Under the pieces are notes generated by a model that had not been told where the DNA came from, ran no database searches, and saw only the letters and a list, made by a program, of their open reading frames with translations. Shown in pieces: positions 4,612 to 37,968 of a stretch of 43,141 bases of DNA. A program made the position numbers and the translations under genes. Source of the DNA: a virus (Duplodnaviria; Caudoviricetes); the IMG/VR virus record IMGVR_UViG_3300005077_000074, positions 1 through 43,141 of that record, one strand, 5' to 3'. Numbering within the stretch: the stretch's first letter is position 1; each line of letters starts with the position of its first letter.

Positions 4612-5360
4612 GCATCGGTGGATCTATCTTCGTTCGTCGAGCGATTCGCTACGACTACTGCATCCGAGAGGCGATCAACTCCCTGCTCGGAATCTGTGAC
4701 GAGGTTGTTGTCGCTGACTGCCAGAGCGATGACGGCACTTACGAGATGCTTCATGAGATGGCATCTAAAGAGAAGCGCATCAAGCTGCACCGGCACCCGT
4801 GGAAGCCTGTTGCTGGCAGGGGTGGGGCGTGGTTGGCTGATGTGGCAAACTATGCCAGAGAAGCCCTGACCACCGACTACCACATCGGACTGCAGGCTGA
4901 CGAGGTGCTGCACGAGGGCGACTACCACCTGATCAAGCGTGCTGCAGAGTCTAACGCCAGATGCCTCGTCACCAGAATTAACTTCTGGCTGGATCACCGC
5001 AGGTATTTGCCTGTCGGAGAAAAGGTCGGATCGAAGATCGTGAGGCTCGCGCCGAAGAGCGTCGAGTGGTGGGGTGATGCCGAGAGCCTCAAGCCTGACG
5101 GGACAGAGGTTGATCTGACCGCTGTTCACATCTTCCACTACGGGTTCATCCGCAAGCTGGATGCATTTGTGGATCGGTCGATCAGTATCCAGACCGAATG
5201 GCACGGAGAGGGCAATCACGACAAACTCTTCGACCGCATCAAAGCCGAAGGGAAACAACCGCTGATCGATCACTTCCCCGTCGAGAAGCTGGTGAAGTTC
5301 AGGGGATCACACCCGAAGTTCGCAGCCGAATGGCTCAAAGAGAGAGGATACACGGACTGA
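4608..5360 (+). CDS. GT-A fold glycosyltransferase (GT2-like)
   Basis: EVVVADCQSDDGT, LQADEVLHE (DxD-like) and IFHYGF motifs. Confidence 0.85.
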   Translation: MSIGGSIFVRRAIRYDYCIREAINSLLGICDEVVVADCQSDDGTYEMLHEMASKEKRIKLHRHPWKPVAGRGGAWLADVANYAREALTTDYHIGLQADEVLHEGDYHLIKRAAESNARCLVTRINFWLDHRRYLPVGEKVGSKIVRLAPKSVEWWGDAESLKPDGTEVDLTAVHIFHYGFIRKLDAFVDRSISIQTEWHGEGNHDKLFDRIKAEGKQPLIDHFPVEKLVKFRGSHPKFAAEWLKERGYTD

Positions 5361-6247
5361 TGAAAACATACGTTCTGTACCATGGGAATTGCCCTGACGG
5401 CGCTGGTGCCGCCTTGGCATACGCAACGTCGATCCCGCTGTCCGAGATTGACCAAACTGAGTTCATCCCGGTCAACTACGGCAAGCCGCCGCCTGACATT
5501 GAGGATGGGTCTCGCGTGTTCATTTTGGACTTCAGCTATCCAAGAGCGGTGCTGGAGGAACTGAACACACGCTGCCCGCAGTTGTTGGTTTTAGACCATC
5601 ACGCTACTGCCAAGGATGAGTTGGATGGCCTGCTGTATTGCCGGTTCGACATGACTCGTAGCGGGGCAGTGATGGCGTGGCAGTACTTTCATCCATGCGA
5701 GCCAGTTCCCATGTTCTTCCAATACCTTCAGGACCGAGATTTGTGGCAGTGGAAGCTGGAAGGATCACGGGAAGTATCGGCTGCAATCGGCAGTTATGGC
5801 TTGGATTGGAGGACTTGGTTCGAGTCGAGCATGCACCTGTGGGATCCCAAGATTCTCATGGAGGAAGGAAGAACGTGCCTGCGGCTCAAAAACCAGCAGG
5901 TTGACATCATGGCTCACAACGCCAGGGGCGCTCTAATAAACACCGAACACCGCGATATTTGGATTCGAGACTTCAATTCCGAGCATCCTGAATGGGGAGA
6001 GATCAGGCCGGGTAGGTTTTACGGTCCTGTTGCAAATGCGACGGTGTTCTTCTCCGAGGTCGGCGAACGACTGATGGAACTGCATCCAACCGCTCCGTTT
6101 TCAGCCTACTACTTCGACCGATCCGATGGTCGCAGGCAGTGGGGGTTGCGTGCACGAAAGGACTTCGATGCAGCGCGACTGATTGCGAAGCCGATGGGCG
6201 GCGGAGGGCACCCGCAGGCATGCGGGTTCACACAAGGGGGGCTGTAA
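5360..6247 (+). CDS. DHH/DHHA1 family phosphoesterase
   Basis: YHGNCPDG, LDFS, LDHH, QDRDLW and GGGGHPQACG motifs. True start is ATG 5360 (TGATG). Confidence 0.9.
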   Translation: MKTYVLYHGNCPDGAGAALAYATSIPLSEIDQTEFIPVNYGKPPPDIEDGSRVFILDFSYPRAVLEELNTRCPQLLVLDHHATAKDELDGLLYCRFDMTRSGAVMAWQYFHPCEPVPMFFQYLQDRDLWQWKLEGSREVSAAIGSYGLDWRTWFESSMHLWDPKILMEEGRTCLRLKNQQVDIMAHNARGALINTEHRDIWIRDFNSEHPEWGEIRPGRFYGPVANATVFFSEVGERLMELHPTAPFSAYYFDRSDGRRQWGLRARKDFDAARLIAKPMGGGGHPQACGFTQGGL

Positions 6248-6248
6248 C

Positions 6249-6989
6249 ATGGAAATCCTAAAAGGAACACCCGCCCTGTGGAAATACTTCAGGGCGTTCT
6301 TCATACCGTCGGAACAACAGGCTGAATACTTCAACGAGTGCGTCAGGCACGGCATGAAGTATGGCAAGACCGAGCAGGACGCCAGGAAGACCGAGAACTT
6401 CTGTTTCGAGCTCATGAACCTGATAGCCAGCGGCAGGCTCAGCCCGCTTCAGATCAAGGACCACATGTTCATGATCCAGACTGCATACGCCGAGAGCTCA
6501 AAGAGCCGCGAGCTGTATGCGCACTACCTCGTCGGCAACGGGGTTGAGATCGGCAGCGGCGGCTGGCCGATGGTTCCGCACGCCATCCAGGTTGAGCTGA
6601 GTCACAGGACGTATGCGAAGTACAACTCGGGCAATGTCCCTGAGATCCCGGTGCAGTGGCACAGCGATAGCGCCATCCTCCCGTTCAAGGACGAGACCAT
6701 GGACTGGGTTGCGTCGTCGCACCTGATCGAGGACTTCATGGAGTGGATGCCGTGGCTAAGGGAGTGGACTCGGATCCTGAAGCCCGGTGGGCACCTCGTG
6801 ATCCTTGTGCCAGACAAGGAGCTGTGGAACAAGGCGCTCAGGGAAGGGCAGCCACCGAATTGCGCACACCGACATGAGAGCTTTGTCGGCGAGCTCTCAA
6901 CCTATGCACCCAAGCTTGGGCTTGAGGTGGTCATGGATCAACTCGCTGGCGACAAGTATTCGATCATATTCGTTGGGAGGAAACTATGA
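6249..6989 (+). CDS. Class I SAM-dependent methyltransferase (Methyltransf_11-like) with N-terminal extension
   Basis: GVEIGSGG motif I, LPFKDETMDWVASSHLIED, and RILKPGGHLVILVPD. Confidence 0.85.
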   Translation: MEILKGTPALWKYFRAFFIPSEQQAEYFNECVRHGMKYGKTEQDARKTENFCFELMNLIASGRLSPLQIKDHMFMIQTAYAESSKSRELYAHYLVGNGVEIGSGGWPMVPHAIQVELSHRTYAKYNSGNVPEIPVQWHSDSAILPFKDETMDWVASSHLIEDFMEWMPWLREWTRILKPGGHLVILVPDKELWNKALREGQPPNCAHRHESFVGELSTYAPKLGLEVVMDQLAGDKYSIIFVGRKL

Positions 6990-7609
6990 ATTTGAATGAA
7001 CTCCTGCTGAAGCAGCGGGCTCTTTACCCAAAGAGCGACGACATTGACTTCGAACAGGCAACCCAAGGACTCCCAGAGTTCGAGCTGCCGTTCACCATCT
7101 ACCGCACCGGAGCCGCCGCGATTCAATTCTTCAGAATCATCAGGTACATGGTGAACCCAAGGAGAATTGTGGAGATCGGGTTTAACCTTGGGCACAGCGC
7201 AAGCATGATGCTGCATCTGATACCGGATGCATCCGTGCTTAGTGTTGAGATCAACACGCACGAGAGCGTCAAGAGGGCCAGCGAGATCGTTGCACGCAAA
7301 TACCAAGGTAGGTTTCAGATTGTATTCGGCAGCTCATCGGATCCGCTGGTTCAGACCAACGTGGTCATGAAGATTCAGCCGAGGCTTGTGTTCATCGATG
7401 GAGACCATTCGATTGATGGCATAGACAACGACATCATGTTCGCCATTCGCCTTGGTGCAGAATGGATCGCGTTTGATGACCTGCTCCCGGAGTTCGGACC
7501 TGGAACAATACCTGGGATAGCCAAGCACAATCTGAAGGTTGTCGCCGCCACCGGGAACATGGTCCTGTGCCGAAGACCTGAAGGATACACGGAGCAACCA
7601 TGCCACTAA
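6986..7609 (+). CDS. Class I SAM-dependent methyltransferase (Methyltransf_24-like)
   Basis: IVEIGFNLGHSA, VFIDGDHS and IAFDD motifs. Confidence 0.85.
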   Translation: MNLNELLLKQRALYPKSDDIDFEQATQGLPEFELPFTIYRTGAAAIQFFRIIRYMVNPRRIVEIGFNLGHSASMMLHLIPDASVLSVEINTHESVKRASEIVARKYQGRFQIVFGSSSDPLVQTNVVMKIQPRLVFIDGDHSIDGIDNDIMFAIRLGAEWIAFDDLLPEFGPGTIPGIAKHNLKVVAATGNMVLCRRPEGYTEQPCH

Positions 7610-9126
7610 ACAACGTCACGATCAGCATCCTCTGCCTGGACAATCTTCCGATCACGCAGCGATGCGTTGAGAGCCTGCTCAGGAACACCATAGGATTCGA
7701 CCTGATCATCACAAACAACGGATCAAAGGACGGAACCGCTGGCTACATCGAACGACTCGCTCAGAGCGTTCCGAATGTCAGCACGATCCACCACCAGAAC
7801 AACCTCGGGTTTCAGATCGGGCACGAGGTTGCGTTCTCGGAGTGCGATACGGAGTTCTTCCTGCTGCTGAACAACGACACGATCATCGAAGGTCCTGAGT
7901 GGCTACCGTCGCTCCTGCACCCGATGAAGGACCCGCGCATCGCAGCAACCGGACCAACCGGAAACTGCTGCTCGATCAGGGGCGACAGTTTCTTCGGCTA
8001 TCCGAACGGGCCATTCGAGTACCTCGAAGGATCGTGCCTATTGCTCCGGTCTCAGGTCGTCAGGGAGATCGGGCTGTTCAGCAAATACATCAGCCATTCG
8101 TACGGCGAGGACTCGGACTTGTGCCTGCGCCTGCGGTATGCAGGATATCGCCTAAGCAGAGTCACAGTCCCAGTTCGGCACATAGGGTCAGCAACATCAA
8201 AGCGCATGCCTGAGGTTAAGCAGCACCTGAAGCGCAACTGCGCGGTGCTGCAGAGGGTCTGGTCTCATTATTTGAAAGTGAGGAAGGTGAATCATCCAAT
8301 ACTCGTCAAGAGGGCTGCAGCCATCGGGGACGTGCTGCTGACAACCCCGATAATCAGATCGCTGGCAACGCAGCGTGCGACCTGCGACCTGTATGTCGAG
8401 ACCATGTTCCCTGAACTGTTCGAGAGGAATCCTTACGTTAAGCTGGCTGCGAAAAGCGTGGTGCCCACACCTGAGACGCAGGTGATAGACCTCAACATGG
8501 CATACGAGAATTCCGTTGGGGTCCACATCATCGATGCATATCAGGAGGCTGCGATGATCGAGCTGCACGACAGGTTCCTCGATTACACACCGAGCCCTGA
8601 GTCGATCAAGACCGCATCGGATCTGCTGTCTTCGTTCAACGGGAACCCGCTGTGCGTCATGGCACCAGGACCGACAACGTGGATCGGAAAGAACTGGATG
8701 CCAGACAGGTGGAATGCGGTTGCTGGAAACTTAATCGAAAGAGGGTGGAGAGTGATCCTGGTTGGGGCGTCGCTCGAATACAGAATCAAAAGCTCGCTGG
8801 ATATGCGCGGCAAGACGGACTTCAGCCTGCTCGCAGCAATCATGGCTCACAGCCAGCTGTTCGTCGGAGTCGACTCGTTCCCTCTGCACATGGCGATGAG
8901 CCAGGAGCTGCCTGCGGTTGGGATTTTCGGGGCGACGCTGCCGCAGTTCATCCTCTCTGAAGGTCAGGCCCTTGGGGTGCACGCCCTGCCAGAGAATGTG
9001 CCGTGTGTCGGAGCAAGGCACAGGGTTGCCGGGTCAACCCACGTTCAGTGCGATGGCGCATGCATGCGGGCTGTGACCGTCGATATGGTAATGGCCGGAA
9101 TCGAGATAATGATCGGGATGACGTGA
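7600..9126 (+). CDS. Bifunctional glycosyltransferase, GT2 plus GT9 fusion
   Basis: The N-terminal half has NNGSKDGT, LLNNDT and YGEDSDLCLR (GT2). The C-terminal half has RAAAIGDVLLTTP, KNW and FVGVDSFPLHMA (GT9). Confidence 0.9.
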   Translation: MPLNNVTISILCLDNLPITQRCVESLLRNTIGFDLIITNNGSKDGTAGYIERLAQSVPNVSTIHHQNNLGFQIGHEVAFSECDTEFFLLLNNDTIIEGPEWLPSLLHPMKDPRIAATGPTGNCCSIRGDSFFGYPNGPFEYLEGSCLLLRSQVVREIGLFSKYISHSYGEDSDLCLRLRYAGYRLSRVTVPVRHIGSATSKRMPEVKQHLKRNCAVLQRVWSHYLKVRKVNHPILVKRAAAIGDVLLTTPIIRSLATQRATCDLYVETMFPELFERNPYVKLAAKSVVPTPETQVIDLNMAYENSVGVHIIDAYQEAAMIELHDRFLDYTPSPESIKTASDLLSSFNGNPLCVMAPGPTTWIGKNWMPDRWNAVAGNLIERGWRVILVGASLEYRIKSSLDMRGKTDFSLLAAIMAHSQLFVGVDSFPLHMAMSQELPAVGIFGATLPQFILSEGQALGVHALPENVPCVGARHRVAGSTHVQCDGACMRAVTVDMVMAGIEIMIGMT

Positions 9127-9908: not shown

Positions 9909-12900
9909 TCAGTAGCTTAGCGCCCTGAGCCTCCTGGTCAACGGCCGAGAAAGCCTGCCCTGCAGGATCTTGGTGCCGCCACCGCCGAGCGCCTTGCTGA
10001 GCCTCGTGCGACCGCCAGAAGATGATCCGCCGAACTTGGTCTCTGGCTGGCGCTGCTCCTCGTAGAACGTCATCTGCGTTCCGATAGAAGTGGCACCGCG
10101 AGCGAGAAGCTCCTCAACAGCCAGCACGTGCGCACGCTCGCTGTCGCTCATTCTCCCAAGGATCCTGACCCTCTGCTCGTAGGTGAGGGACTCCTGGAAA
10201 GTCCTGCGGTAAGGATTGCGGCTGGTGTAGAGCTGCCTGACCAGCTTCCTGGCAGCCATGTCGTCGATTTGCCTCTCCTCTTTGGCCCTTTTGACAGCCT
10301 CCTCATACCAGCGCATGAGCGAAGTGTGATCCTGGTTCATCGCCGCGTTCACCATCCGGTTGGCGTAGGGAGTCAGCGTGGTTGCTAGCGTGCCGCTCAT
10401 CTGAACGGACATCTGCTTGGCTTCCTTGAGCAGGTCGGTGTCGCCATACCGTGAGAGCAGGCGCTGTGCACCCGTTGCGTAGATCGAGCCCTTGTAGGCT
10501 GGCAAGCTGTTGAACGCCACCCTGGATGGCCCAGGCATCACGGTCTTCAAAACGCTGTCCAATCCGTAGGTGATGTCCCTCGTGTTCGCCACGCCAGCCG
10601 CATAGTTCAGCCACGCCAACCCAACGTTCTGCACCGGGAGCGCGACACCAAGCGATCGCCTGGATGGCTGATCGTTCAGGGTCATGTTCGCGAGCATGTC
10701 GACGTAGGGAATGATCGTTGCCGCAGCAGTGGCAGCCTCCTTCACCTTGCCCCATCCTGTGTTGGCCTCCCAGAAGTGACGGCTGCTGCGCTCTTCACCG
10801 TGGACGTATCTCGCCCACGCCCGAGCTGCGGCCTCATACATCTCCTCACCGAACAGACCGGCAGCGACCAGCGACGACATGATGAACATCAAATTGTGCA
10901 TCACAAGGGCTGTGGTGACATCCTTCACCCTTCCGCCAGCGCCCCTGCCTTCGCGCTTCACCGGCATCCCCATCCAGTACGCCTGATTACTGAGCATGTT
11001 CAAACGCCAGCCCATCAGGAAGTAAACCAAGCGGCTGATGATTCCCTCGCGAGCCTTCAGCGGGCGATTCGTGGGAGTCGCTACGTTCAGCTCCTCGATG
11101 TGTGACTGAGCAAGGTTGAAGCGCTGCTCGTCGGTCAGCCACCTGACATCCCTGATATTGCCACCAGCCTGATCCAAGCGGTCGAAGAAGTCGTTCACGG
11201 AAACCGCGAGGTCCATACCGGCATGGTTGAACCAATACATCAGCATGTTCAAAGCGGACTGATCCTTTGAATCGCCGCCCCACCACGGAGGAAGCGTCTC
11301 GTTGGGAGTCAGCTGGTCGAACCTGCGAACCTCGGCACCGCTTTCCTTCATCTGCAGGTAGCGCTTCCTGAGGTGGCTTTCCAGGTGGTTGATTGCACCA
11401 AGAGATGCGTTGAACCCGGCGACGTTCGCCGCCATGTCACCATACCTCGGCATCGTGTAGCGCAGCAGCGCCAGCTGGAACTCCAGGTATCCGGTGGCAT
11501 GTTTGCCTGCGAGCTTCGCGAATGCCGCAAGGTTCTTGAGGCCAGCCTCCTGCCACTTTGAATCCTTGTCGAACGTGATCGCCTCACGCGACGAGATCAA
11601 CCCCATCGTCTGCGGGCTGGTGATGATCGATTCCAGCTTCTCGGTCAGGTTCATCGGGATCATCAATCCACGACGCTCCATCTCCTTGTAGTGCCGACAC
11701 TTCTCGAACAGCAAGCGGGTGAACTCTGGCAGCACATTGCCAAGCAGATCGAACTCGAACTTCTTGCTGGCAGGGTTCAGGGCCTTGAGCGCCTCCTTGA
11801 TCTCGCCTTTCCTGAGGTGCTTGAAGGCTGAGGCACCCGGCCTGGACTTGCGCACAATGGCAACGACCGCAGCCGCAGGCCCCCACGTCAAAGCCGCCAG
11901 GGTCTGCTTCATGACCTCCCATCCAGCTAGACCGTAGGAGTGAGTCAGGCTTCCGGTTATGGCGTGCAACCTCTGGCCATTGAACCCAAACCCTCCCTGG
12001 TGCCAGTTGCGCATCGACGTGAATGGGGCAGCGATCAGGCCTCCAAGCAGCACACCGAACACCCTGTAGAGAGGCTGCATGTCATCCTCGAACACCCTGC
12101 CTCCAGGAACGAATGTGCGCTCAAGCTGGGTGATCGATCCCTGCAGCCCATTTATCAGGTGGTCGATCTCGTCGATCGTTGCGGTTTCCTTGCCAGACCT
12201 AACCCTCGCAGCCTGCCTCTTCTTCAGCTCTTGAGTTGCTGACACCTCCTGTTTGCCGGTCTCCTTGCTGATGCCAGCAACCTCCTGGATCATCTTTGCC
12301 TTGCGAGATTGCAGCGCAGAGACAGCCGACTTCATCCCGGTGAGAACCTGACTCAGATAGAAGCTGCTGCCGTTGAGTCCGAAATTGATAATGTCGGCAT
12401 CACTCTTGAATCCGTAGTCATACCACCAATACGGGGCGATCCGAACACCGCGCCCAAGCGTGAAGCTGTTCTCGAACTCGAACGACGTAAGGATGCTCTT
12501 GCTGGCAGCTGACGCCTCCATTGGCATCACCGCACGCTTGTAGACCTTGGAGACGGTCCTATCGAATTCGGCATAGAAAACCTCCGATCCCTTCGGCGCA
12601 TCCTCAACCTCTTCACCCTCGATCGTCGCCTGGGGGATATTCGCATCGAAGAACGCTTCGAGCTCGACCATGTTCTTGATCTTGCCGTCCCTGATGTCGT
12701 CTGCGGCGATGGCGTAGATATCCTCAAGCGCAGACTTCGTTGTGAAGTCTTCGCTGCGATCCCTCAGCCATGAAGAGACGGCATCGTGCAGGTAAGGATC
12801 AAGCAGCCTGCGCTTGTCCTGGACACTGCCATTCTTGATACCCTCGTTGTAATATGTCTTCGTGAAGTCAATGGCTGCGCGGTTGAAGCTCCTTGGGAGC

Positions 12901-15900
12901 ATGTGCTTGTAGAGCTTGAGCGCCTTCCGGTAGTACTTGCCAAGCCCAGGAACCCACATGTCTTGAATGAGCGCAGGGTCGATCATGACGGACCTGCCCT
13001 GCGTGACGTCTATCTGCATGGCTGCATCGACGGCCTTACTCTGAAGCTCCAGCAGCTCCATGTCTTCCTTCGTGATCACAACGCCATTCGAGGGAAGCTC
13101 ATCGCCTGCTTTCAAATCCCAGTTGTTGTTGTTCAGCGCGAACAGCTCCCTGCCAACCATCGTGTACCATTGATCCACGGCAAGAGACGGCTCCTTGACC
13201 TCGATCTCTGCGGCGTGGCTTTGCGCAGCCCTGAACGTTGCGTTCCTGACGGGCTTGCCCCAGTCCTCTCCCCACTTTGCCATTGCGAGGTAGGAATCGC
13301 GCCAGCCCCGGAGGGCATAGTTCATGAACACCGTCATCCTGTTGCCGTATTGGCGGATGATGCCGTCTATGATCTGGGTTCCCTTGTTGGCAATGTTCGC
13401 CAGCCACCCCATTCCGAAGCAGTTGTAGTTCTTCGAAAACTCGGTCATTCCGTTGCAGTCGGCGAAGTTTTTCAGGAATTCAGCCCAGTGCCGGAAGTAT
13501 GGAACAGCCATGTCACCCTGGTTCTCTGGCCTGCCAAGCCACTGCTCAATTTCAAGCAGAGCCTTCAGAGCCTTAGCCTGCTCGCCACTCATGGAGTCCA
13601 GGTCGGACTGCAGGTTGGCTGTTATGGTGCCACCGCTGATCGGAAGCGGGAACTCCATGTTCTCACCCCACTTCGGAAACCCGACACTCTTCCAGGCGTT
13701 CGGGACAACGCGCTCGCCAACATCGTCAGATACAGTCTTGCGGAACGCCCTGTAGCCCTCGTCAGCCATCATCTCTTCTCCGAACTGAACGGCCTGCTCC
13801 AAAGCCTCAAGTCGATTGGAGATCCTGTTGATCCGCCTCTCCCTGTTCATTAACAGGAACTTGGCCTTCTCAAGGTTGGTGACGGTTTTCCTGTCCAGCG
13901 AGAAGATCCTTCGCACTGCCTGAATGTTTCTGGTCTTGGTCAGGTCACTTGCTATCTTGGCAGCCATTCCAGGAATAGACCCAAGCACCGCTTGATCGCC
14001 CTCAAAGGACATCGCAAGCAGACCATGCCTGATCCTCGCAAGTCTGGCCAATGCCCAGGCAGCACCTTCAAGGATGTGCGTCTCAACCTGCATTTCCTCT
14101 TCGGTTGGGTGCTGCGCCATGTAGGCGTTCAGGATCTCACCGGGCACCATCGTCTCGTCACCCATCAGCAGCCCGGCCCCTTCAGGTGTCCCGGCTATGC
14201 GATTCGTGATTCTGATCATTGCCTGCGCTATCCCGCTCGAATAGCCGCGATACCTTTCAATCCACTTCGCCTCACTCATCAGCCTCTGATATTGCGCATG
14301 CTGCTCGCCCTTCATCTTGGCAAGATCAAGTGCCGCTTTAACAGCCAGCTGAAGCTGCCTATCCACCTCAACACCCAGCGTCTCAAGGTCCCAAACCTTG
14401 GCCCTTCTGGTCTGAGCATCCTTAACCAGTCTCGCAAACTTGTCTGACGCTATGTCCTTGAGGGCGTTAGCCAGCTTCCTCCTGCTGATCTCCAGCCTCC
14501 TCTCGAAAGTCTGGATTGCGCCCATAGCGCCGAGCGCCATCTGGTTGCGCAGGTGACTGCTGGACATTGAGGCTTTCGCCGCAGAGTACTCAGCTCCTGA
14601 CACATTGAACAGATCCCTGACAGCCTGGACAGTCTCGGTGACATTGAGCACGCCAATCATCTTAGACGCCATCGAGTTGAGCTGCATTCCTGATGCAAGC
14701 CACCTGCTCTCAATGTTCGACATCAACTTCGACAGGTTGAACGAAGCCCCCATCAGGCTGGTGCCAACCTCAGTCCTGTTCCTCCTGCCACCGAACTCGC
14801 TGATCTTCCTGACTCTGTTCGGCGTGAATCCAATTCCGACAGCACCGATATCCGTGAATGCGTTCACCTCGGACAGATACCCACCGTTGGCGCTGATGGT
14901 GAAGTCGCCATCGGAGAAGCTGCGCATAAGCCGGTCAAAGTAACGATCCTTCTGCGCACCGTATTCACCCATCCAGGCTTTGACCGCATTGATCAGGTCT
15001 CGCAGGAACCCGTGGATCCACTGCACGGCACCCTTGATCCCGCTGTCAGTGTTCGCCCGCATGCCTGCGTCGGTCAGGTTGTGAGCGAAGAACTCGTCAG
15101 TGTTGATCAGTGGATAATAGTCAGCCCACGAGATTCTCTGTTCCAGCATGAACTGTTCGCTGGTGACGGCCCCGCCGTGATTCATGATCCACTCCGCGAA
15201 CTGGCGAGCCGCAACTGGCGAATCAGGATTCTCAAGGATGCTGGTCAGTGCCGACATCCGCATGCTCTCGACTTTATTCGCATGCTCTTCAGGCAGGAAC
15301 CGCGCAATCGCGTGAGCTATTTCCTCTGCGGTTGCTGTGATGTTCCTGCTTCCGGCAACCACCCGCGCCAGCCTGTATGCATGGCTGAACGTTCCGGCGT
15401 AATGGATCTTCGAGTCCTTGCCAATCCTCGGACCCTTCACCATCTCGAACGTCAGATCCGCGAGGAGCGCTTCAGGGAGGCTATCGATGAACTTGAGTGC
15501 GCTAGCCCTGGCCTCGTCAGTGAATCCGTTGTCAACCCTGTCGATCATCTCCCTGATCGCCTGCTTCCCTTGCACCCTCTTGCCGAACAGGGATTGGTTG
15601 GCGCTCGCCGATGATGGGGCGTCCTGCGAGATCGCACTCGACCTGCCGCTCTTGGACGCCATCGCGCCACGGTAATCCTCAAGCAAAGTCTCAAGCGCCT
15701 CCATCTTCGCCTGGATGACTGGGGACTCAGTGAGCTTATCCCACCCAGGAATCATCACGTCGGACAGCTCTTGAAGGATGTCTTCCCACGGATCATCCTC
15801 GAATGGATCCGTATCCTCCATCTTGTTGTAGACCGCACGCCCGCCCTCGGTCTTGAGCAGTTTCTCGATGATGGCTTCGATGTCGGACGGCAGGATTTCG

Positions 15901-18900
15901 GATGCCTGCCTCGATGCCTCGATCTCAGCCTTGGTTGCGAGCTCAGGAAGCGCAGTGTCTGGAAGCTTCTCGCCACGCAGCTTCTTGTAGTCCTCGATTG
16001 ACAGGAAGTCCTTCGCGTCAGGATCCCTCTGGTTCCACAGCGAATGCCCCTCGGAGTCGTATCCGGAATTCAGGATTGCGTCAGGATCCAGATACCACGC
16101 CTTCACCGTCATCGGATCTCCGCCAGTGACGTCTTCAGGGATGACGTGCTCAACCTCCTGTGCGATCTGCGACGGCAGAGTCTCAAGGGCTACGAAGTAA
16201 ATCGTCCTGTAGCCGCTCGGAGTCTCAGCCATGATTTTCGCCTCGCCGCCTTCAATGGCAAGGAATGCATCAACCGGAATGCCATAGACAGTCTTGAGCC
16301 CAGCCTCAGCTGCCTCCTCCGGTGTCATCTTGGCGGTGAACTGTTGGCCTGCCTGCTTGACACCAACCAGGATTTTGCCAACCGGCATTCTAACGACTGC
16401 GTCTATGGTCTTCGCATCCGGCTTCCACCTCGAATTGTCAAACGTGCCGTACGCGAGCAGACGATAGCGCATCGGGCCTGGAACCCTCTCACCACTCGAC
16501 ATGTTGTAGTGGCGCTCTGGCAGGAGCGTGCTCTCGATTGCTTCGGTCAGCCTCGGGTTCTGGCTGGGCGGTCTGTTCTGCTGATCCTTGATCTGCTTCT
16601 CCAGCCTTCCGACTTCCGATCGAATATCGATACCCTCCTCAGACACCCTTTGGGCAGCCATGACGCTGCGGTTGGCGTAACCCTTGATCCGCAGGTTCGC
16701 ATGCGTAACCTCCTGAATCACGCCATACAGCTCAGCAACCCGGTCGATCACCATGTTCGAAAGCTCAGTCTTCCTGGCCTTCTGCATGGTCTGAGACAGG
16801 TCGGTCCAGTTGCCCCACAGCCTCATCGGGATTGTGTCAGGGCGCTGCGAACCGCGAGCGATGACATCACCTGACTGCTTTGCGGCAAGCTGCTCCTCTT
16901 GGGTCATCGCCTTGGACCCGAGCCGCGCCACCTGCTGCAGCTTCTTGTAGCCCAGGTTCTCCAGAAGTCTGACGAGCTCTCCCTGCTCAAGCGTCGAGAG
17001 GATCTTGAGGATGTCCTTCCTTGCCGTTGACGTCTCCTTCGCAGAGACGGTCTGCGATGCGAGCCACCAATACCGCAGCGGCACACCGTAGAGGATGTTC
17101 TCCCTGAACGGTTCTCCGTCGAAGATCTCAGGAGTCAGGCCCTTCTTGCTGGGCTTCGATATCAGGACCCGCTTGTTCAGCCAGTCGGGCTCAGCGCCTT
17201 CGACAACCTTTTCAGGCTTCAGCGAGTTTGCTGGCATGTTCTTCAGGACCTTCGGTTTCCCGTCGGCATCAGGCTCCTCAATCCGGATGTCGTAGAACGT
17301 CTTCTCGGTTTTGATCCCAACGACCGCATTCCTTCCGAGGCCGCGATCAATCCTAGCAATTGGCAGCTTCCTGACAGCAACGACGACACCAAGCGTCTCC
17401 CTGTCCTCGTGCTTCACCATCACCGGTGCACCCTCCGAAAACACAACCTCAGCCTCGATGGTCGGCATACCCTCGCTCAGGATGACCTTTGCGGTTGGGA
17501 TGCCCATCTTCTGCCGCACCCTGACGAATGCCACCTTGACGGTGATCGCGTCGGCGACAGCGCCGATGAACCGAGCATACACCTCGTCCAATGAGCTGCT
17601 CTGAACAACCGGGATTGGCATCTCCTTCACAATCCCAGGTATGGATACGTTCCGGTAGTATGCCCCGTTGCTGGATTGGTAGACTGGCCCGATCAAAGAA
17701 TTGGGCCGCAGGTTCAGCATCTGAGAGACGAACTTCGGCTGCGTCCTGATGTAATCGATCTCGGCAATACCCTCGTCCCTTGAGACCCCAGGCTTCTTCG
17801 ACTTGACCTGATACCCGCGATTGCTGACGTCCCAATCGAAGTTCGCAAGGAGCAGCTTCGTGGCGTCCGTCATCTCCAGGTGATCGATGTAGGAGATGAC
17901 AGTGTCGAGATCGTCCTCAGTCAGCGACGTGATATCCGCTGGCGTCACGTCCATGAACATCGTGTCCAGCGGCTTGTCCACCTTGCGGTATCTGACACGC
18001 CTGCGGTTCGACACCGGCACGCTGATGTAATCCGGGTCAGGGGTTGAAGAGAGAGCCCTGAGCAATCCGATGCGGCTTTCCTCAGCAAGGATCGGATAGA
18101 ACCCAATGATCCGGACGAACTTGCCGTTTTTGGTTTCGATGATGTGGTCTTCGGTGGCTGCTTCGGCAGGGGTGATCGGCTTGATCGTGTCGATCATCAG
18201 CTTCACCACCTGACGCATGAACGGGGTATTGTTCTCGTACCTTGAGGTCTCAATGGCGATCGTCCTGGCACCAGACCTGAGACGGTGCACAGTGCGGTAA
18301 AGCCTGTCTCCGGTAGGCAGGCCCTTCGGGGCATCGAGCAGCTTCGGGTATCCAACCTCGGACGGTGCCTTGTCGCTTTCTGCCTTCGGGCGATAGCCGT
18401 ATCGCTTCGCCACCTCGCGGGCACGCTGCCGCATGTCAGACGACACATACCTGTCAGCCTTCGGCTTCAGCTCTTCAACGAGTGTCCCGAGATATGCCAT
18501 CTCAGCCTCGGAAAGGCGCATATCCCGGCTCCTCGAAATCGCGCCCTCAGGATCGTCGACCGCCATCTGCTCAAGCATGGCAGTCCGCATTGTGGTGACG
18601 ACCGGCATCCGGTTTACCGTCGCTGATCTCGGAATGAATGGCCTCCCCAGGTTTGCCCTCGCCTGATCCGGCGTCTCCTTTGCCAGGGAGATGAAGTCGA
18701 CGTTGAGGTTCTTGATCTCCGGGTTCGGGGAGTATCCGGTATCGCCACGAATCAGGATCTCACCAGTCTTGCCCTGCCCCGTAGCAGCCTCGATCGCAGA
18801 CTGAATGAATCCGATCTTCTTGGCATACGAATCGATCAGGTCCTGGCGACCTTCCTTCTTCGAAGCCTGATGCGCCTTCAGCGCGGACCTGCGCATCTCC

Positions 18901-21900
18901 TGGATGGACTCGTGGACGTCCTCCTCAGTCTTGATCAGGTGCCGCCCAACGGCCGCAGCCGGGTGGTGGGCCATGTGGTTGGGAACCATCTTCAGCCAGT
19001 CACCCAGGTTGGCAACCTTCGGCCGCTGCCTGCTGTCGTCCGCGATGTTCTGCTCGTCGACGGTGAGGCTCCCCCTGCCAAGCACCTTCCCGTCAACGTT
19101 CGCCTTCATGTAGGCGTCCAGGAGTTTGTCGTATGTTTCCCTGGTAAAGTTCCGGTGCGTCTTGAGCGCTGGATTGTTCAGATAGGGTATGTCGACGATC
19201 ATCGCCGCGATCGGCGGAGACGGCTGGATCGCGCCTGGGTTCTGCGCATACCACGTGTGGATTGCGCTCCACAGCGACGCCGCGATCTCCTGGAACTCCT
19301 GGTTCTCGGTGTAGAGGAACTGCTCCGGGAGCGCTGGCATCGTGGCGTCAGTGTGCTCAACAGTCACAACTCCTTGACCACCAACATAATCCTCGCGATC
19401 CACCATGCCGTCTACGGCATCAGGCTCGTCGTAGTCCTCGGTGTTGCCGCTAAGCTTCTTCTTCGCGTCGAAGTACGCGGGCTTCAAGTATGCCTTGATC
19501 TCCCGCCCCCACTTCTCAACCATCGCCTTTGCGAACGGAACAAACCGGCGCAACCCAGTGTCCTTCAGGTAGTTATACGCCCACTCTGCAGTCACAGCCA
19601 TGAGCTTCGGGTTCAGTGGACCGAGCACGCTCATGTTGACCCGGCCGAGCAGCTTCGCCATCTCGGCTTCCAGCTCGCGCATCCTGACCTGCTCAGGGGT
19701 TAATGGCTTGATATCAGGGGACTTAACCCTGGTGAACACCTGCAACTCTGGGATCCAGTGGATCTCGGGATCCTTACCCCAATCGAACCCCTGTGTTTGC
19801 TGGAGACGCCCAGCCTTGTCCAGTTCCTCAGCCTGCGCCTTGGTCAGGGTAGGCCCGCTCTTCTCCTTGAGGTCGGGAACAACGGGGGGAGTCACCGCGC
19901 CGACGATTGCGACCGTGTCTTCGGCCTTCTGCACCTCGGTTATAGGGGCCACTGCTGGCGCTGGGGCTGGCGGAGACGCGCTTTCTGCGGCCGGTGGTGC
20001 CGTTGGAGCGGCCGGGGCAGCCTGAGCCGCCACAGAGGCTTTCAGCTCCTTTATTCGTGCCAGATACTTCGCGTGGAGCTCGGGAAAGCTGATGTAGAGT
20101 TTCCCTACTAGGTTGTTCTCCGCCTGATTGAGGCTCTCCCCGCCCGTAGCTACGACCTTCTTGGCCAGGGCTTCGATGTTCTCCGGGGTGGGGTCTATGA
20201 CATCCACAGCCTCAGGCTGCTTGATCCTTTTTGGTCTCTGTGGAGCTTTAGGTGGCACTTTCTGCACAGCCACCTTACGTCCAATGGCTTGCTGTAATCG
20301 TCGTGATGCGTCTGGGTATTTAGATCCCCACAGCTTTCGCACCTTTTCCTTAATAGCCTTCCCCTTCTTCTGTAAGTCTTTGCGTAGCACCTGCAGTTCA
20401 TCTTCGCTCGCTGATCCTGTGTCAGCGGATGCGATGACCGATGCCTGCGCATCGATTTCGCGTGACAAGCCAAGCAATTCCTCTGCCCCGGCCGACGAGG
20501 ATTCCCGCATTTGCACAGTGACGATTTCATTGAATGTTTCCTCCAGTGATTGGGATGTTCCACGAATTACATTAGCCGCACCAGCTGCTACTGCTGGCAC
20601 TTCCGGTGCCTCAGTAACCGGCTCAGTAACCGGCTCAGCAGACGGAGGCATCCCCTTGTGCCGGTTCTTGATCTCCTCCTGCTCAACCCTGAGCTTCGCA
20701 GCTTCGGCCAATATCTCGTCAGCCCGCTTGGCATATTCCGGCCCTGGAGGCAGGGCACCGATACGCTCGTTGATCTTTTCCAGCTCGGAATAGATCTCCT
20801 GAAATCGCGCAATGTCCTGCTCCAGGGTTGGAGTCTGTGCCGGGGCTACTTCTTGGCCCCCTTCTTGCACCCTTTCTTCTTCATTCTGAACCACCTCCTT
20901 CTTGGCTATCTCCTCGGCAGCCGCAATCGGGTTCTGAGCACCCTTGACCTGCGACTCCTGAGAAAGTATCTGTTGCTCACCTTCGCCCCCTGTTGGAGAC
21001 ACAGGGGTATCCCCTGCAGCTTTTTGTTCCCCTGGAGGTGTTGAGGGCTCCGCTTTCGGCCGAAGCTCTGCTGGGTAATCCGGGACGTGGGCGAATCGGG
21101 CTGGCTGCGGTGCGGCTGGTGCCGCTGGCCGCGTTACTGGCAGAAGCCTGCCAGCCTTCATGTCGTCCAGGTCCTTTTGCGAGAACAATGGCGCTGACAC
21201 CGATATCTCGGCTGATCTCTGGTTTAGTTCCTGAAGAGCTGCGTCCACCTCCTCTTGCGTAGCCTGACCTGCTTCAAAGTTGTCGAATGTCTCATTGAAC
21301 TTCTTGAGGTGAACACCCAGCTCCTTGCCGTATTCACCAGCAGCCCGCTCCTTCTCTGCCATCCAGAGGAACGTCGATTCCCTGTTTGAATCAGTCCATC
21401 GCTTCTTGGCCTCCTCCTCTTGTTCCTTGGCCTTTTTCTCTGCACGCTCCGCGAGCTTCTCAAGACCGATCTTCCCTCCCTCAACAGTGCCGCCGAGAAC
21501 GCCACCAAGAGCGTACGCGAATATCGCCTGCTCTGCGGCCTGTTCCGGAGTCATGTCTGGATCGTACTGCAGCCTCGCAAGAACAGCCTGAGTGATCTCG
21601 TCCGCGCCTTCCTCGCCGCCTTCCAGGTTGAACTGCTTCATCATCCTGCCAACGACACCCTTGATGAATCCCTTGGGTGCCTTGGTGACGAGCGAGCTTT
21701 CAATACCAGTCTTGCCGAACGCCATGGTCCATAGAGCTGTCGATGCAGCTGCCGACAGCGACGGGATCCTGGCGAGCTTCTCGGCCTTCTCCTTGCCGTA
21801 GATCGGCTCGAACTTCTTTATTGCCGAGTCGTACGTCTCGCCTCCGCTCTGCATCCCTCCAAAGACCGAAGACGCAACAAGACCGATGTTGCTAGCAGCA

Positions 21901-22478
21901 TTGACACCCGCACCGACAAGCCTCGCGCCACTGGCAGCAACACCACCGGCAGCCATCGTCGGGGCGCTCTGGATCATCTGACCAACAAACTGGCCAGCGA
22001 TCCTCGCGCCAGTGCCTGGGAGGATTGATTCCTGGAGTGCAAGCCGCTCTTCCTGGACCGCGCCAAACTCGTCAGCGATCAGGCCGGATATGTCGGCAAT
22101 GTCCTTTGCGGTCTTGCTGACCTTCTCAGCGATTGGCTCAGTGACACGCGGGGAGATGTTGGAGCTGATGCGGCTTGGGATGTCGGAGATGATGTTCGCC
22201 CCGAGCTGAACCGCACGCCCAACCCCCTTGAAGAACCCGTGCGACCCTGCTTCAGCCTGCAAACCAATGGATAGGCCGGTCTGACCCTTGCCCTGAAGAG
22301 CCTTACGCTTCTCCTCTCGGAGGTTCCTTCGGCGCTCCTGCCTGCTGAGGCTGTCGAGCTCAGGACTCTTTGAGAATGAATCGAGAGCCCTGTTCCAGCC
22401 CTCGTCGGTGAGAAGATCCTCTGGGGCCAACGGCCGCAGTGTGGGATCAAGTGCGGTGGGATCGACTATGTTTGGCAT
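9909..22478 (-). CDS. Giant (4189 aa) internal virion / DNA-ejection polyvalent protein
   Basis: Single 12.57 kb ORF following the ejection-type genes, TAATG-coupled. It has Gly/Ala hydrophobic N-terminal helices with EGGEEGADE, a zincin-like EEIAH...DEFFA segment and a helical C-terminus. Confidence 0.85.
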   Translation of the reverse strand: MPNIVDPTALDPTLRPLAPEDLLTDEGWNRALDSFSKSPELDSLSRQERRRNLREEKRKALQGKGQTGLSIGLQAEAGSHGFFKGVGRAVQLGANIISDIPSRISSNISPRVTEPIAEKVSKTAKDIADISGLIADEFGAVQEERLALQESILPGTGARIAGQFVGQMIQSAPTMAAGGVAASGARLVGAGVNAASNIGLVASSVFGGMQSGGETYDSAIKKFEPIYGKEKAEKLARIPSLSAAASTALWTMAFGKTGIESSLVTKAPKGFIKGVVGRMMKQFNLEGGEEGADEITQAVLARLQYDPDMTPEQAAEQAIFAYALGGVLGGTVEGGKIGLEKLAERAEKKAKEQEEEAKKRWTDSNRESTFLWMAEKERAAGEYGKELGVHLKKFNETFDNFEAGQATQEEVDAALQELNQRSAEISVSAPLFSQKDLDDMKAGRLLPVTRPAAPAAPQPARFAHVPDYPAELRPKAEPSTPPGEQKAAGDTPVSPTGGEGEQQILSQESQVKGAQNPIAAAEEIAKKEVVQNEEERVQEGGQEVAPAQTPTLEQDIARFQEIYSELEKINERIGALPPGPEYAKRADEILAEAAKLRVEQEEIKNRHKGMPPSAEPVTEPVTEAPEVPAVAAGAANVIRGTSQSLEETFNEIVTVQMRESSSAGAEELLGLSREIDAQASVIASADTGSASEDELQVLRKDLQKKGKAIKEKVRKLWGSKYPDASRRLQQAIGRKVAVQKVPPKAPQRPKRIKQPEAVDVIDPTPENIEALAKKVVATGGESLNQAENNLVGKLYISFPELHAKYLARIKELKASVAAQAAPAAPTAPPAAESASPPAPAPAVAPITEVQKAEDTVAIVGAVTPPVVPDLKEKSGPTLTKAQAEELDKAGRLQQTQGFDWGKDPEIHWIPELQVFTRVKSPDIKPLTPEQVRMRELEAEMAKLLGRVNMSVLGPLNPKLMAVTAEWAYNYLKDTGLRRFVPFAKAMVEKWGREIKAYLKPAYFDAKKKLSGNTEDYDEPDAVDGMVDREDYVGGQGVVTVEHTDATMPALPEQFLYTENQEFQEIAASLWSAIHTWYAQNPGAIQPSPPIAAMIVDIPYLNNPALKTHRNFTRETYDKLLDAYMKANVDGKVLGRGSLTVDEQNIADDSRQRPKVANLGDWLKMVPNHMAHHPAAAVGRHLIKTEEDVHESIQEMRRSALKAHQASKKEGRQDLIDSYAKKIGFIQSAIEAATGQGKTGEILIRGDTGYSPNPEIKNLNVDFISLAKETPDQARANLGRPFIPRSATVNRMPVVTTMRTAMLEQMAVDDPEGAISRSRDMRLSEAEMAYLGTLVEELKPKADRYVSSDMRQRAREVAKRYGYRPKAESDKAPSEVGYPKLLDAPKGLPTGDRLYRTVHRLRSGARTIAIETSRYENNTPFMRQVVKLMIDTIKPITPAEAATEDHIIETKNGKFVRIIGFYPILAEESRIGLLRALSSTPDPDYISVPVSNRRRVRYRKVDKPLDTMFMDVTPADITSLTEDDLDTVISYIDHLEMTDATKLLLANFDWDVSNRGYQVKSKKPGVSRDEGIAEIDYIRTQPKFVSQMLNLRPNSLIGPVYQSSNGAYYRNVSIPGIVKEMPIPVVQSSSLDEVYARFIGAVADAITVKVAFVRVRQKMGIPTAKVILSEGMPTIEAEVVFSEGAPVMVKHEDRETLGVVVAVRKLPIARIDRGLGRNAVVGIKTEKTFYDIRIEEPDADGKPKVLKNMPANSLKPEKVVEGAEPDWLNKRVLISKPSKKGLTPEIFDGEPFRENILYGVPLRYWWLASQTVSAKETSTARKDILKILSTLEQGELVRLLENLGYKKLQQVARLGSKAMTQEEQLAAKQSGDVIARGSQRPDTIPMRLWGNWTDLSQTMQKARKTELSNMVIDRVAELYGVIQEVTHANLRIKGYANRSVMAAQRVSEEGIDIRSEVGRLEKQIKDQQNRPPSQNPRLTEAIESTLLPERHYNMSSGERVPGPMRYRLLAYGTFDNSRWKPDAKTIDAVVRMPVGKILVGVKQAGQQFTAKMTPEEAAEAGLKTVYGIPVDAFLAIEGGEAKIMAETPSGYRTIYFVALETLPSQIAQEVEHVIPEDVTGGDPMTVKAWYLDPDAILNSGYDSEGHSLWNQRDPDAKDFLSIEDYKKLRGEKLPDTALPELATKAEIEASRQASEILPSDIEAIIEKLLKTEGGRAVYNKMEDTDPFEDDPWEDILQELSDVMIPGWDKLTESPVIQAKMEALETLLEDYRGAMASKSGRSSAISQDAPSSASANQSLFGKRVQGKQAIREMIDRVDNGFTDEARASALKFIDSLPEALLADLTFEMVKGPRIGKDSKIHYAGTFSHAYRLARVVAGSRNITATAEEIAHAIARFLPEEHANKVESMRMSALTSILENPDSPVAARQFAEWIMNHGGAVTSEQFMLEQRISWADYYPLINTDEFFAHNLTDAGMRANTDSGIKGAVQWIHGFLRDLINAVKAWMGEYGAQKDRYFDRLMRSFSDGDFTISANGGYLSEVNAFTDIGAVGIGFTPNRVRKISEFGGRRNRTEVGTSLMGASFNLSKLMSNIESRWLASGMQLNSMASKMIGVLNVTETVQAVRDLFNVSGAEYSAAKASMSSSHLRNQMALGAMGAIQTFERRLEISRRKLANALKDIASDKFARLVKDAQTRRAKVWDLETLGVEVDRQLQLAVKAALDLAKMKGEQHAQYQRLMSEAKWIERYRGYSSGIAQAMIRITNRIAGTPEGAGLLMGDETMVPGEILNAYMAQHPTEEEMQVETHILEGAAWALARLARIRHGLLAMSFEGDQAVLGSIPGMAAKIASDLTKTRNIQAVRRIFSLDRKTVTNLEKAKFLLMNRERRINRISNRLEALEQAVQFGEEMMADEGYRAFRKTVSDDVGERVVPNAWKSVGFPKWGENMEFPLPISGGTITANLQSDLDSMSGEQAKALKALLEIEQWLGRPENQGDMAVPYFRHWAEFLKNFADCNGMTEFSKNYNCFGMGWLANIANKGTQIIDGIIRQYGNRMTVFMNYALRGWRDSYLAMAKWGEDWGKPVRNATFRAAQSHAAEIEVKEPSLAVDQWYTMVGRELFALNNNNWDLKAGDELPSNGVVITKEDMELLELQSKAVDAAMQIDVTQGRSVMIDPALIQDMWVPGLGKYYRKALKLYKHMLPRSFNRAAIDFTKTYYNEGIKNGSVQDKRRLLDPYLHDAVSSWLRDRSEDFTTKSALEDIYAIAADDIRDGKIKNMVELEAFFDANIPQATIEGEEVEDAPKGSEVFYAEFDRTVSKVYKRAVMPMEASAASKSILTSFEFENSFTLGRGVRIAPYWWYDYGFKSDADIINFGLNGSSFYLSQVLTGMKSAVSALQSRKAKMIQEVAGISKETGKQEVSATQELKKRQAARVRSGKETATIDEIDHLINGLQGSITQLERTFVPGGRVFEDDMQPLYRVFGVLLGGLIAAPFTSMRNWHQGGFGFNGQRLHAITGSLTHSYGLAGWEVMKQTLAALTWGPAAAVVAIVRKSRPGASAFKHLRKGEIKEALKALNPASKKFEFDLLGNVLPEFTRLLFEKCRHYKEMERRGLMIPMNLTEKLESIITSPQTMGLISSREAITFDKDSKWQEAGLKNLAAFAKLAGKHATGYLEFQLALLRYTMPRYGDMAANVAGFNASLGAINHLESHLRKRYLQMKESGAEVRRFDQLTPNETLPPWWGGDSKDQSALNMLMYWFNHAGMDLAVSVNDFFDRLDQAGGNIRDVRWLTDEQRFNLAQSHIEELNVATPTNRPLKAREGIISRLVYFLMGWRLNMLSNQAYWMGMPVKREGRGAGGRVKDVTTALVMHNLMFIMSSLVAAGLFGEEMYEAAARAWARYVHGEERSSRHFWEANTGWGKVKEAATAAATIIPYVDMLANMTLNDQPSRRSLGVALPVQNVGLAWLNYAAGVANTRDITYGLDSVLKTVMPGPSRVAFNSLPAYKGSIYATGAQRLLSRYGDTDLLKEAKQMSVQMSGTLATTLTPYANRMVNAAMNQDHTSLMRWYEEAVKRAKEERQIDDMAARKLVRQLYTSRNPYRRTFQESLTYEQRVRILGRMSDSERAHVLAVEELLARGATSIGTQMTFYEEQRQPETKFGGSSSGGRTRLSKALGGGGTKILQGRLSRPLTRRLRALSY
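20195..20530 (-). CDS. HNH-family zinc-finger endonuclease nested in the +1 frame of the giant gene (111 aa)
   Basis: CKC...CLACH finger and CESCG...[23 protein letters not shown] motif; GGAGG 9 nt upstream of ATG 20530; TAG stop at 20195-20197. Confidence 0.85.
   Translation of the reverse strand: [111 protein letters not shown]
20610..20638. repeat. 12-bp tandem repeat (2.4 copies) encoding AEPVTEPVTE
   Basis: ctcagtaaccgg ctcagtaaccgg ctcag read directly. Confidence 0.85.
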
Positions 22479-23821
22479 TATGGACCTCGCAGCTCATCCA
22501 TCTTCCTACGATAGACAGCTGTCAAGGCCGCATGTAATGCGGATTCGTTGGTGTGAAGCGGCTGGCCAGTCTCGTCGCGCAACGTCAGGAGACGCTGATA
22601 GTTTCGAGCAGCCTCGATCCTCTCATCCCTTGAAAGATCGATAGGCTTACCGTCGATCATCAAGCCGCCGTTCATGACTTTCACCCCCACAGGCTGTCCA
22701 GCTTCAGTGACATTCATTCCAGCCCCACTGCCTGGACGCCTCGCAGTGACGATATCGTCGATCGTCACCGGGGCTGAGGACGAAGTCGTCGGCATACCTG
22801 ATACGTCTGGGGCTGCAGCAGGGGCAGCACCCCCGCCACCCGTAGTGGATCCAGGAGGCGGAGGTGCCTGATTTTGCCCCGATGCCGGTTGCGTGACTGA
22901 CCCTCCGAAAGTGATTGCGGGCTTGAAGATGTTTTCGAGTGGATCATGCCGAATAGCCCCAATCATGTCAGGGTTCATCCTGCCCATGACAGCAAGAACT
23001 GCCGTATCGTAATCATTCCGCGCCTTCTCAAGGGCTAGCTTCTTTTGGAGATCGCGGGATTGACCTGGAACAAATGGAAGATCCAGCAGATTTGGAAGCT
23101 GAACATTGCCAAGCCACGGAACCCAAGCCTGCCTTGGATTACTTTCGGGCATGGCCTTCGCGACACTAAGCGCCTCCCTCTCTCTGGCTGTCTGCGCGTT
23201 GAGGTGGCTAGCCATGTTGCCGACCTGCTCCATCGCCTGACGGTTACTCTCCCTGATGCCTTGAGACAGCGCAATCATTCTGGACCTGATACCAGGATCG
23301 GTCACGTTCTCCATCGCCTTCTCTACAGCCTCAGGCGTAACCCTGCCGTTGTCAGCCTCACGAAGAAGTAGCTCGTAGGTGTCCTGATCGCGCTTCAGGG
23401 CTGCAGCCTGCTCTTTCTCCTGTGCAGCTATTGCAGCTTGCTGCTCTCTCCAGTTTCGATCCTCCTCTTTCCTGATCCTTTCGGCTTCACGGAGTGTCTC
23501 CTGGCGCTTTCCTTCAACTGCGAGATCACCTTGGTTGCGCAGACTTTGAACATCAAGCGCCGAAGCGGCCCTGGCTGCCATCTCCTCCCGAGTAAGCGCA
23601 GCCTCTTGCGAACGGCGCTCTCGATCGAGCATGAGGGCCTGGGCGAGCTCTGTCTGCTGAAGTTTGGCGGCTTGGTTTGCACGGCGAATGTTCTCAACGA
23701 AGGCAGCTGCCCGCATGAGATTTTCAATACCCTGCTGGGCGGAGGCGGCACGCTGGCCAGACCACGCCTGATCTCGCGCAGCCAGCGAGTCAACGCTACC
23801 GCCATAGACGTATCCTGCCAT
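22478..23821 (-). CDS. Putative internal virion/ejection protein (coiled-coil)
   Basis: 447-aa Ala/Gln/Glu/Arg-rich helical ORF immediately upstream of the giant gene. Confidence 0.7.
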   Translation of the reverse strand: MAGYVYGGSVDSLAARDQAWSGQRAASAQQGIENLMRAAAFVENIRRANQAAKLQQTELAQALMLDRERRSQEAALTREEMAARAASALDVQSLRNQGDLAVEGKRQETLREAERIRKEEDRNWREQQAAIAAQEKEQAAALKRDQDTYELLLREADNGRVTPEAVEKAMENVTDPGIRSRMIALSQGIRESNRQAMEQVGNMASHLNAQTAREREALSVAKAMPESNPRQAWVPWLGNVQLPNLLDLPFVPGQSRDLQKKLALEKARNDYDTAVLAVMGRMNPDMIGAIRHDPLENIFKPAITFGGSVTQPASGQNQAPPPPGSTTGGGGAAPAAAPDVSGMPTTSSSAPVTIDDIVTARRPGSGAGMNVTEAGQPVGVKVMNGGLMIDGKPIDLSRDERIEAARNYQRLLTLRDETGQPLHTNESALHAALTAVYRRKMDELRGP

Positions 23822-37919: not shown

Positions 37920-37968
37920 GGTTTACGGTAGGCTTGCTCATGGCGGTCGATCAAGTTTATTGATTGGT
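37920..37968. promoter_or_regulatory. 49-bp divergent promoter region
   Basis: Minus strand reads TTGATC-N18-TACCGT-aaacc-ATG (leaderless-type spacing). Plus strand has a weaker TTGCTC-N18-TATTGA. Confidence 0.45.

Follow-up and report, generated by a model that had tools for sequence, protein, structure and literature searches.

An HNH-type nuclease gene nested out of frame in a 4189-residue phage gene, and its relatives in other host genes

Introduction

HNH endonuclease genes hidden out of frame inside other coding sequences are known from mycobacteriophage DNA methylases, as the ShiLan domain and as the insertion in Pacc40 gp60 (passages of PMC11855218, PMC9957025 and PMC12613952); since the splicing-free lifestyle of such out-of-frame genes was published in 2025 for the ShiLan domain (PMC11855218), the novelty that the initial annotation of the present locus implied for this strategy was overstated. 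The mob and seg genes of T4 are mobile, free-standing nuclease genes devoid of introns, with cleavage sites that may be distant, and the operator to which I-TevI binds, upstream of the I-TevI gene, resembles its homing site (sections of PMC2988022); these genes lie between genes or in introns, whereas the one described here is located inside a coding gene. I-KsaII is annotated in GenBank as a putative endonuclease in a polA intron of Staphylococcus kayviruses. The phage polyvalent proteins represent the class to which the host gene is compared (PMC5512222), and the passages of that article dealing with these proteins do not mention nested genes. Finally, the parS sites of the chromosome and of phage phi29 are bound by the host Spo0J, as reported in parts of PMC10197239 and PMC2731898.

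The element considered here is found in the window, i.e., the whole stretch of DNA that was analysed (43,141 nucleotides), a 43-kb phage contig with terminase, tail collar, virion structural protein and integrase genes, as recognised with Pfam and PHROGs. It resembles the ShiLan domain in that a zinc-finger HNH gene lies out of frame in a host gene that carries no stop, no intron or intein is detected, the host-frame product is poorly folded and empty alleles exist in the family, these being distant orthologs for the giant gene and clearer for other hosts; homing is proposed for both from their sequences (for ShiLan in the relevant part of PMC11855218). However, it is distinct from the ShiLan domain proper by phase (second frame, instead of the third), size (111 aa, compared to 195 or 160 aa for ShiLan/Pacc40), ribosome-binding site (a clear GGAGG, while none was found for ShiLan according to the section concerned of PMC11855218) and host, which is a giant, likely virion-packaged protein and not a dispensable methylase; splicing-free gene invasion would be extended from the latter to the former. 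Unlike ShiLan, one small subfamily seems to have invaded several unrelated hosts repeatedly, and a parS-like half-site, apparently linked to its N-terminal module, lies upstream; these two aspects appear to be new, and no description of a parS-linked phage HNH or of an HNH hidden in a polyvalent protein was found in the openly accessible literature.

The nested gene and its product

The features of the nested gene are the following.

20195..20530, minus strand: nested HNH-type nuclease ORF, 111 aa, +1 relative to the host frame, from homology, alignment and model
20540..20544, minus strand: GGAGG, Shine-Dalgarno-like site read from the sequence, formed by the host codons CTG GAG GAA

That a real HNH-type gene is nested inside the giant gene is confirmed. 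As first annotated, a 111-aa ORF (20530-20195) is present on the strand of the giant gene (22478-9909, minus) and shifted +1; its ATG, read from the sequence, sits within the host codons AAT GAA, and the proposed Shine-Dalgarno is indeed found as GGAGG at 20544-20540, 9 nt before the ATG. Similar sites were recognised by eye at six of the nine nested copies described below. In the giant gene, 2 of the 162 stop-free runs read in the +1 frame extend to at least 110 codons, as do 6 of the 155 in +2; thus, the length of the nested ORF is by itself unremarkable, and it is homology that makes it real. The search for an HNH/zinc-finger profile, which the initial annotation had called for, returned a PHROGs match to phrog_2340, “endonuclease” (E 8.5e-16), while none of 13 other same-strand out-of-frame ORFs, eight in the giant gene and five in neighbouring genes, was matched by PHROGs. 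With phmmer, 351 of 352 candidates passed E<=0.001, the top one having 59% identity over 87% (E 6.7e-31). A single-protein scan gave no near relatives of the nested protein, no cultured-phage match reached 80% coverage of the query, and the nearest ESM Atlas clusters are viral proteins without names.

The product comprises an N-terminal CxC..CxxCH zinc finger with basic helices and a C-terminal CxxC..HHDDY.KPL.V.WLC..CH...H core, and retains all 13 invariant columns of a 24-row alignment; the position of the canonical HNH Asn is seemingly occupied by Asp, when aligned by eye. I-KsaII falls in phrog_2340 (E 6.6e-59) and, being intron-encoded, although putative, it ties this family to homing-type genes; it has in common with the nested ORF the HH.DY.KPL.[IV].WLC..CH core, but it resides in an intron, possesses a different N-terminal part and is annotated only as putative. 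The structure of the nested ORF was predicted with a pLDDT of 92.6. In a wide structural search the top rows were HNH proteins, namely Gme HNH (Z 5.2, rmsd 3.9, 70 aligned) and GVE2 HNH (Z 4.4), all with Z <8, and Foldseek gave nothing at E<=0.001 with the same model; the predicted fold is weakly consistent with HNH. Nuclease activity of the product is presumed from its sequence.

The host gene

The host gene and its regions are listed below.

9909..22478, minus strand: host gene, 4189 aa, likely virion-packaged polyvalent/ejection protein from context and orthologs, open across the insert
21489..22121, minus strand: conserved N-terminal domain (aa ~120-330), common to many proteins of 1.5-4.7 kaa
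20559..21131, minus strand: Pro/Ala/Glu-rich linker upstream of the insert (aa 450-640)
19779..20192, minus strand: Pro/Ala/Glu-rich linker downstream of the insert (aa 763-900)
10056..16853, minus strand: conserved C-terminal region (aa 1876-4141), 31% identical to P0124

The designation as a virion gene is suggested by genomic context and orthologs, which fit such a role; no Pfam, PHROG or NCBIfam domain was recognised in the giant protein. It resembles the polyvalent proteins in its location near virion genes and in its orthologs and the other hosts, which contain LPD38, ART-PolyVal, Kinase-PolyVal, GGDEF and RadC, and differs from them in having no recognised domain itself. The overlap with the nested ORF corresponds to host residues 650-762, and its placement in a Pro/Ala/Glu-rich linker agrees with the composition of the flanks, where P+A+E is 0.44 and 0.39 vs 0.24 overall. 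The codons noted as atypical are likewise concentrated there, TTA, CTA and CGA representing 6 of 113 codons in the overlap and 21 of 4077 elsewhere, and host GC3 is 0.52 in the overlap compared to 0.73 in the rest of the gene. The host-frame reading of the overlap was predicted as two helices with a pLDDT of 54, and this poor folding fits a tolerated linker. An exact 12-nt tandem duplication (EPVT EPVT) is present at 20610-20633 of the window, in the linker just upstream of the cassette.

Dual coding and search for splicing signals

As had been stated, the host frame is open across the nested ORF, with no stop. The third codon position of the nuclease is the first position of the host codon; the wobble base of the nuclease being the host first position, any host stop can be removed by a synonymous nuclease change, and this geometry implies that a host stop arises only where a T-ending nuclease codon precedes AA, AG or GA. 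T occurs at none of the 31 at-risk sites (7.25 expected, P 1.8e-4), an avoidance that is partly built in by choosing open frames, and at 15 of the 73 other sites. When the segment was recoded with phage codon usage, 0.27% of the recodings left the host frame open, and none of 300 synonymous permutations did. The same pattern would result from a filter acting once, at insertion; hence, stop avoidance shows that read-through is needed and does not give its duration.

The statement that neither intron nor intein is present held for the known families covered: Rfam gave no match at E<=1 in 18500-22500, the giant protein contains no Pfam intein match and no HN[CST] junction, and no target-site duplications or terminal repeats mark the insert ends. 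Unusual phage introns and bypass elements do exist, such as the BAKA intron cited in a passage of PMC11855218, and Rfam and Pfam detect known kinds only, so that removal or bypass of the segment by unrecognised splicing or recoding, or a +1 frameshift fusing the nuclease to the first 650 host residues, had to be considered. Both are very improbable: a removed segment needs no stop avoidance, yet 31 of 31 sites avoid T, the Rfam, intein and terminal-repeat searches gave no signal, and a start of its own, at the position usual for its family, is present in the nested gene.

Insertion or fusion

A phmmer search with residues 1-1093 of the giant protein gave 71 hits, 70 besides itself. Fourteen of these 70 hits align with the giant protein before as well as after the site within a single chain, and the insert is absent from all 14; the homologs lacking the segment that the initial annotation proposed to look for thus exist, as distant ones only. 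P0124, for instance, which lacks the insert, aligns at residues 131-310, 875-922 and 1876-4141, and its linker is about 147 residues shorter. The site-spanning orthologs are distant (20-40%), and therefore the insert ends are not placeable from them. A word search for full-length relatives of the giant N-terminus retrieved only itself, and neither a second allele of the giant-gene locus nor a close relative of the phage was found.

As an alternative, the initial annotation had put forward a read-through fusion, across an ancestral free-standing HNH gene, as the origin of the giant gene. Free-standing members often overlap their neighbours, as in L336, which would give such a fusion, or a long ORF produced by an assembly artefact, some plausibility; however, the 14 orthologs in which a single chain unites the N-terminal and C-terminal parts and lacks the segment speak against the fusion and for insertion, and the same arrangement is found on eight independent contigs, so that we regard either possibility as extremely unlikely. 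In L336 (4919-8536, plus strand) a stop-free run of 1206 codons, terminase-like by eye, shares its first ~120 codons with the HNH gene; no PHROG match at 1e-5 was obtained for this run in the 400 aa tested.

Recurrence in other genes

Of the 115 subfamily genes with DNA, nine, the window copy included, lie within long ORFs and share the same phase. L003 is the only nested case of the subfamily among the 80 best viral loci; L300, L311, L312 and L315 are four of 96 distinct loci from a pattern scan that is blind to nesting, L403 is one of seven loci, and L201 and L203 were obtained via a shifted-frame query and come from a sample enriched for nesting. The eight other hosts are seven large polyvalent-type proteins, whose lengths range, within the limits of the contigs, from 700 to 3150 residues, and one glycosyltransferase (L203); L003, L201 and L312 were found to contain LPD38, ART-PolyVal or GGDEF domains, and the position of the insert varies relative to the shared host domains. 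The HH..Y.KP core is kept in all nine copies, L312 and L315 being devoid of its last His.

The glycosyltransferase match of L203 spans 1017 nt, compared to 612-759 nt in the 79 relatives retained, with the extra ~101 codons in one loop; similarly, at the protein level, the glycosyltransferase P0178 has an insert of ~100 aa that is absent from three relatives at 66-74% identity. Eight of the 71 giant-protein phmmer hits, including the giants P0154 and P0190 and the glycosyltransferase P0178, match the overlap alone, all being examined as proteins. Polyvalent proteins and glycosyltransferases in protein databases already carry the shifted-frame reading as a spurious “domain”, and the real gene is missed. 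P0159, P0171, P0184, P0185 and P0187 (160-384 aa) also contain the shifted-frame HNH reading, either as nested cases or as wrong-frame gene calls. A shifted-frame alignment search retrieved, among longer proteins, only its own members, and none from cultured phages.

In all eight comparisons with the window copy, conservation is higher in the nuclease frame than in the host frame (0.43-0.60 vs 0.22-0.39). Between L312 and L315 the divergence at host third positions is 0.43-0.47 outside and 0.09 inside the overlap, where identity is 85% in the nuclease frame and 71% in the host frame, which is open; judged by these substitutions, selection in this pair acts on the nuclease frame while the host frame is held open. 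In a quick tree the nested copies are scattered: seven label changes are required, well-supported branches forcing only two of them, and a number as low was obtained in 15 of 500 shuffles; several origins of the nested state are likely.

These data also bear on the possibility that the cassette is a recent or dead passenger, in frame by chance, unexpressed or immobile here and not yet decayed. No close relatives of this locus were found, and a host-type frame is open in 15 of 106 non-nested members (5.5 expected), which favours this possibility; nevertheless, it is quite improbable, given that start, GGAGG and all 13 invariant residues are preserved, identity to the closest member of the subfamily is no more than 61%, the end branch is not long (0.47, median 0.66), and the L312/L315 pair points to selection on a nested nuclease frame.

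Some related observations were made on other loci. Records labelled “baseplate wedge protein” were considered as nested cases and rejected, four of five being a mislabelled free-standing HNH ORF and the fifth “hypothetical”; a free-standing phrog_2340 HNH carries this annotation in the GenBank phages L405, L407, L408 and L409. Glu accounts for 12.3% of the host-frame residues in the nine nested copies vs 4.4% in 91 non-nested, non-open genes, while Gln is unchanged, hinting at selection for an acidic helical linker in a comparison uncorrected for GC or for the stop-free condition. HNH genes of phrog_2340 type with another N-terminus are located inside N6/N4 methylase ORFs of L066 (host 2797-4734, plus strand) and L112 (host 3-1667, plus strand), in the third frame, as for ShiLan; the two insert ends of L066 are bordered by host sequence that looks duplicated (ARFFK / ARFKY).

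A parS-like half-site upstream of the nuclease genes

Two further features lie upstream of the nested start.

20556..20571, minus strand: parS-like site TGTAATTCGTGGAACA, with 4 mismatches to the 16-bp consensus, reading IRGT in the host frame
20564-20556, minus strand: perfect half-site CGTGGAACA within TGTAATTCGTGGAACA, 25 nt before the ATG

The initial reading of the locus, sound in the parts confirmed above, had missed this half-site 25 nt upstream of the ATG. The 16-bp parS consensus used for comparison was taken from a portion of PMC10197239, and by the usual test (<=2 mismatches to the 16-bp palindrome) the window site, with 4, does not qualify. Across loci the half-site is 11-fold enriched near the HNH gene and is found upstream of the gene in 78 of 127 cases when the N-terminal zinc-finger module is encoded vs 3 of 95 when it is not, with a Fisher P (6e-22) that is inflated because the loci are related. 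The top de novo 8-mers, GTGGAACA (36 loci, 0.48 expected) and GTGAAACA (17 loci, 0.26 expected), represent one arm of the parS consensus; at most 3 mismatches to the full 16-mer were found at 33 of 127 sites vs 1 of 1074 background windows, and at most 2 at 8 of the 127 family sites. Both orientations occur (53 and 47), and the half-site is present beside eight of the nine nested copies, L203 being the one without it. At empty glycosyltransferase junctions it was found in 3 of 62 strings of about 57 nt, a count that is uninformative.

By analogy with I-TevI, for which operator binding is known, the half-site is likely an operator to which the N-terminal zinc-finger module binds, as suggested by the co-occurrence of motif and module. 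The lack of a sigma-70 promoter signal around the motif (mean 7.15 vs 6.92 for shuffled sequences, 33 of 60 above), with none in window 20000-21000, counts against the operator idea. The host ParB may be the reader of the half-site, as at the parS of phi29; unlike the parS sites of the chromosome and of phi29, however, those found here are mostly half-sites and track one nuclease module. A more speculative proposal, possible although doubtful, is that of a parS-reading nuclease, in which the module would read a parS arm, the weakened copy upstream of the gene would serve as operator, and the true substrate would be parS, either in the chromosome of the host or in rival phages which borrow ParB; such a cassette, of 350 bases, would need no conserved target and would have hidden repeatedly, out of frame, in giant virion-protein and glycosyltransferase genes. 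The half-site represents a concrete candidate DNA substrate for a widespread and uncharacterised phage HNH family, and raises a possible link between phage nucleases and a host centromere sequence.

Additional sites were noticed at other loci. L336 has two parS-like sites just upstream of the HNH gene, and L012, L014, L018, L020 and L027 have half-sites on both sides of it, in the same orientation; in L027 the gene following the HNH encodes the terminase large subunit.

Origin and maintenance of the cassette

The splicing-free, dual-coding cassette in a tolerant linker, which the initial annotation had envisaged, is supported by the stop avoidance, the absence of splicing signals, the unrelated hosts and the empty alleles elsewhere. 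The explanation that we consider probable is that of a selfish, homing-type phrog_2340 cassette. A cassette of free-standing type would have landed in a tolerant linker of the giant gene and survived there, its length and shifted frame having left the host ORF open; these two steps are backed by sequence evidence. The host would read through it, without splicing, as about 115 extra linker residues, and the nuclease would be translated separately from the same late mRNA, by means of its own ribosome site; it would then nick the DNA of cassette-free relatives, whose repair would copy the cassette. Translation, nicking and homing are inferred. The linker of the giant gene is hypervariable and, as such, a poor homing target.

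Alternatively, the nested gene may encode a domesticated phage protein, such as a packaging cofactor of the HK97 gp74/GVE2 type or a DNA-binding regulator, which does not home and is kept for the benefit of the phage. Indeed, the terminase large subunit represents 7 of 58 scored downstream neighbours, and 1 of 51 upstream, of non-nested members, the GVE2 HNH is the second structural row, and the location in the linker would give late expression. On the other hand, five of the seven terminase neighbours come from one clade, the remaining neighbours are varied (SSB, RecT, RusA, portal, holin), and those long enough to score were available at only 58 and 51 of 106 loci; moreover, phrog_2340 includes an intron-encoded member and the inserts in glycosyltransferases are patchy. 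Domestication is accordingly judged unlikely, and the homing-type cassette remains the preferred reading.

Other genes of the window

No capsid or portal gene was recognised among the scanned window ORFs with Pfam, PHROGs and NCBIfam. The terminase large subunit gene (37681-39519, plus strand) is on the strand opposite to the virion operon and is followed by a PIN-PhoH gene (40347-41558, plus strand). Two glycosyltransferase genes (GT2, and a GT2+GT9 fusion), two methyltransferases and a DHH phosphoesterase are clustered at 4608-9126 on the plus strand.
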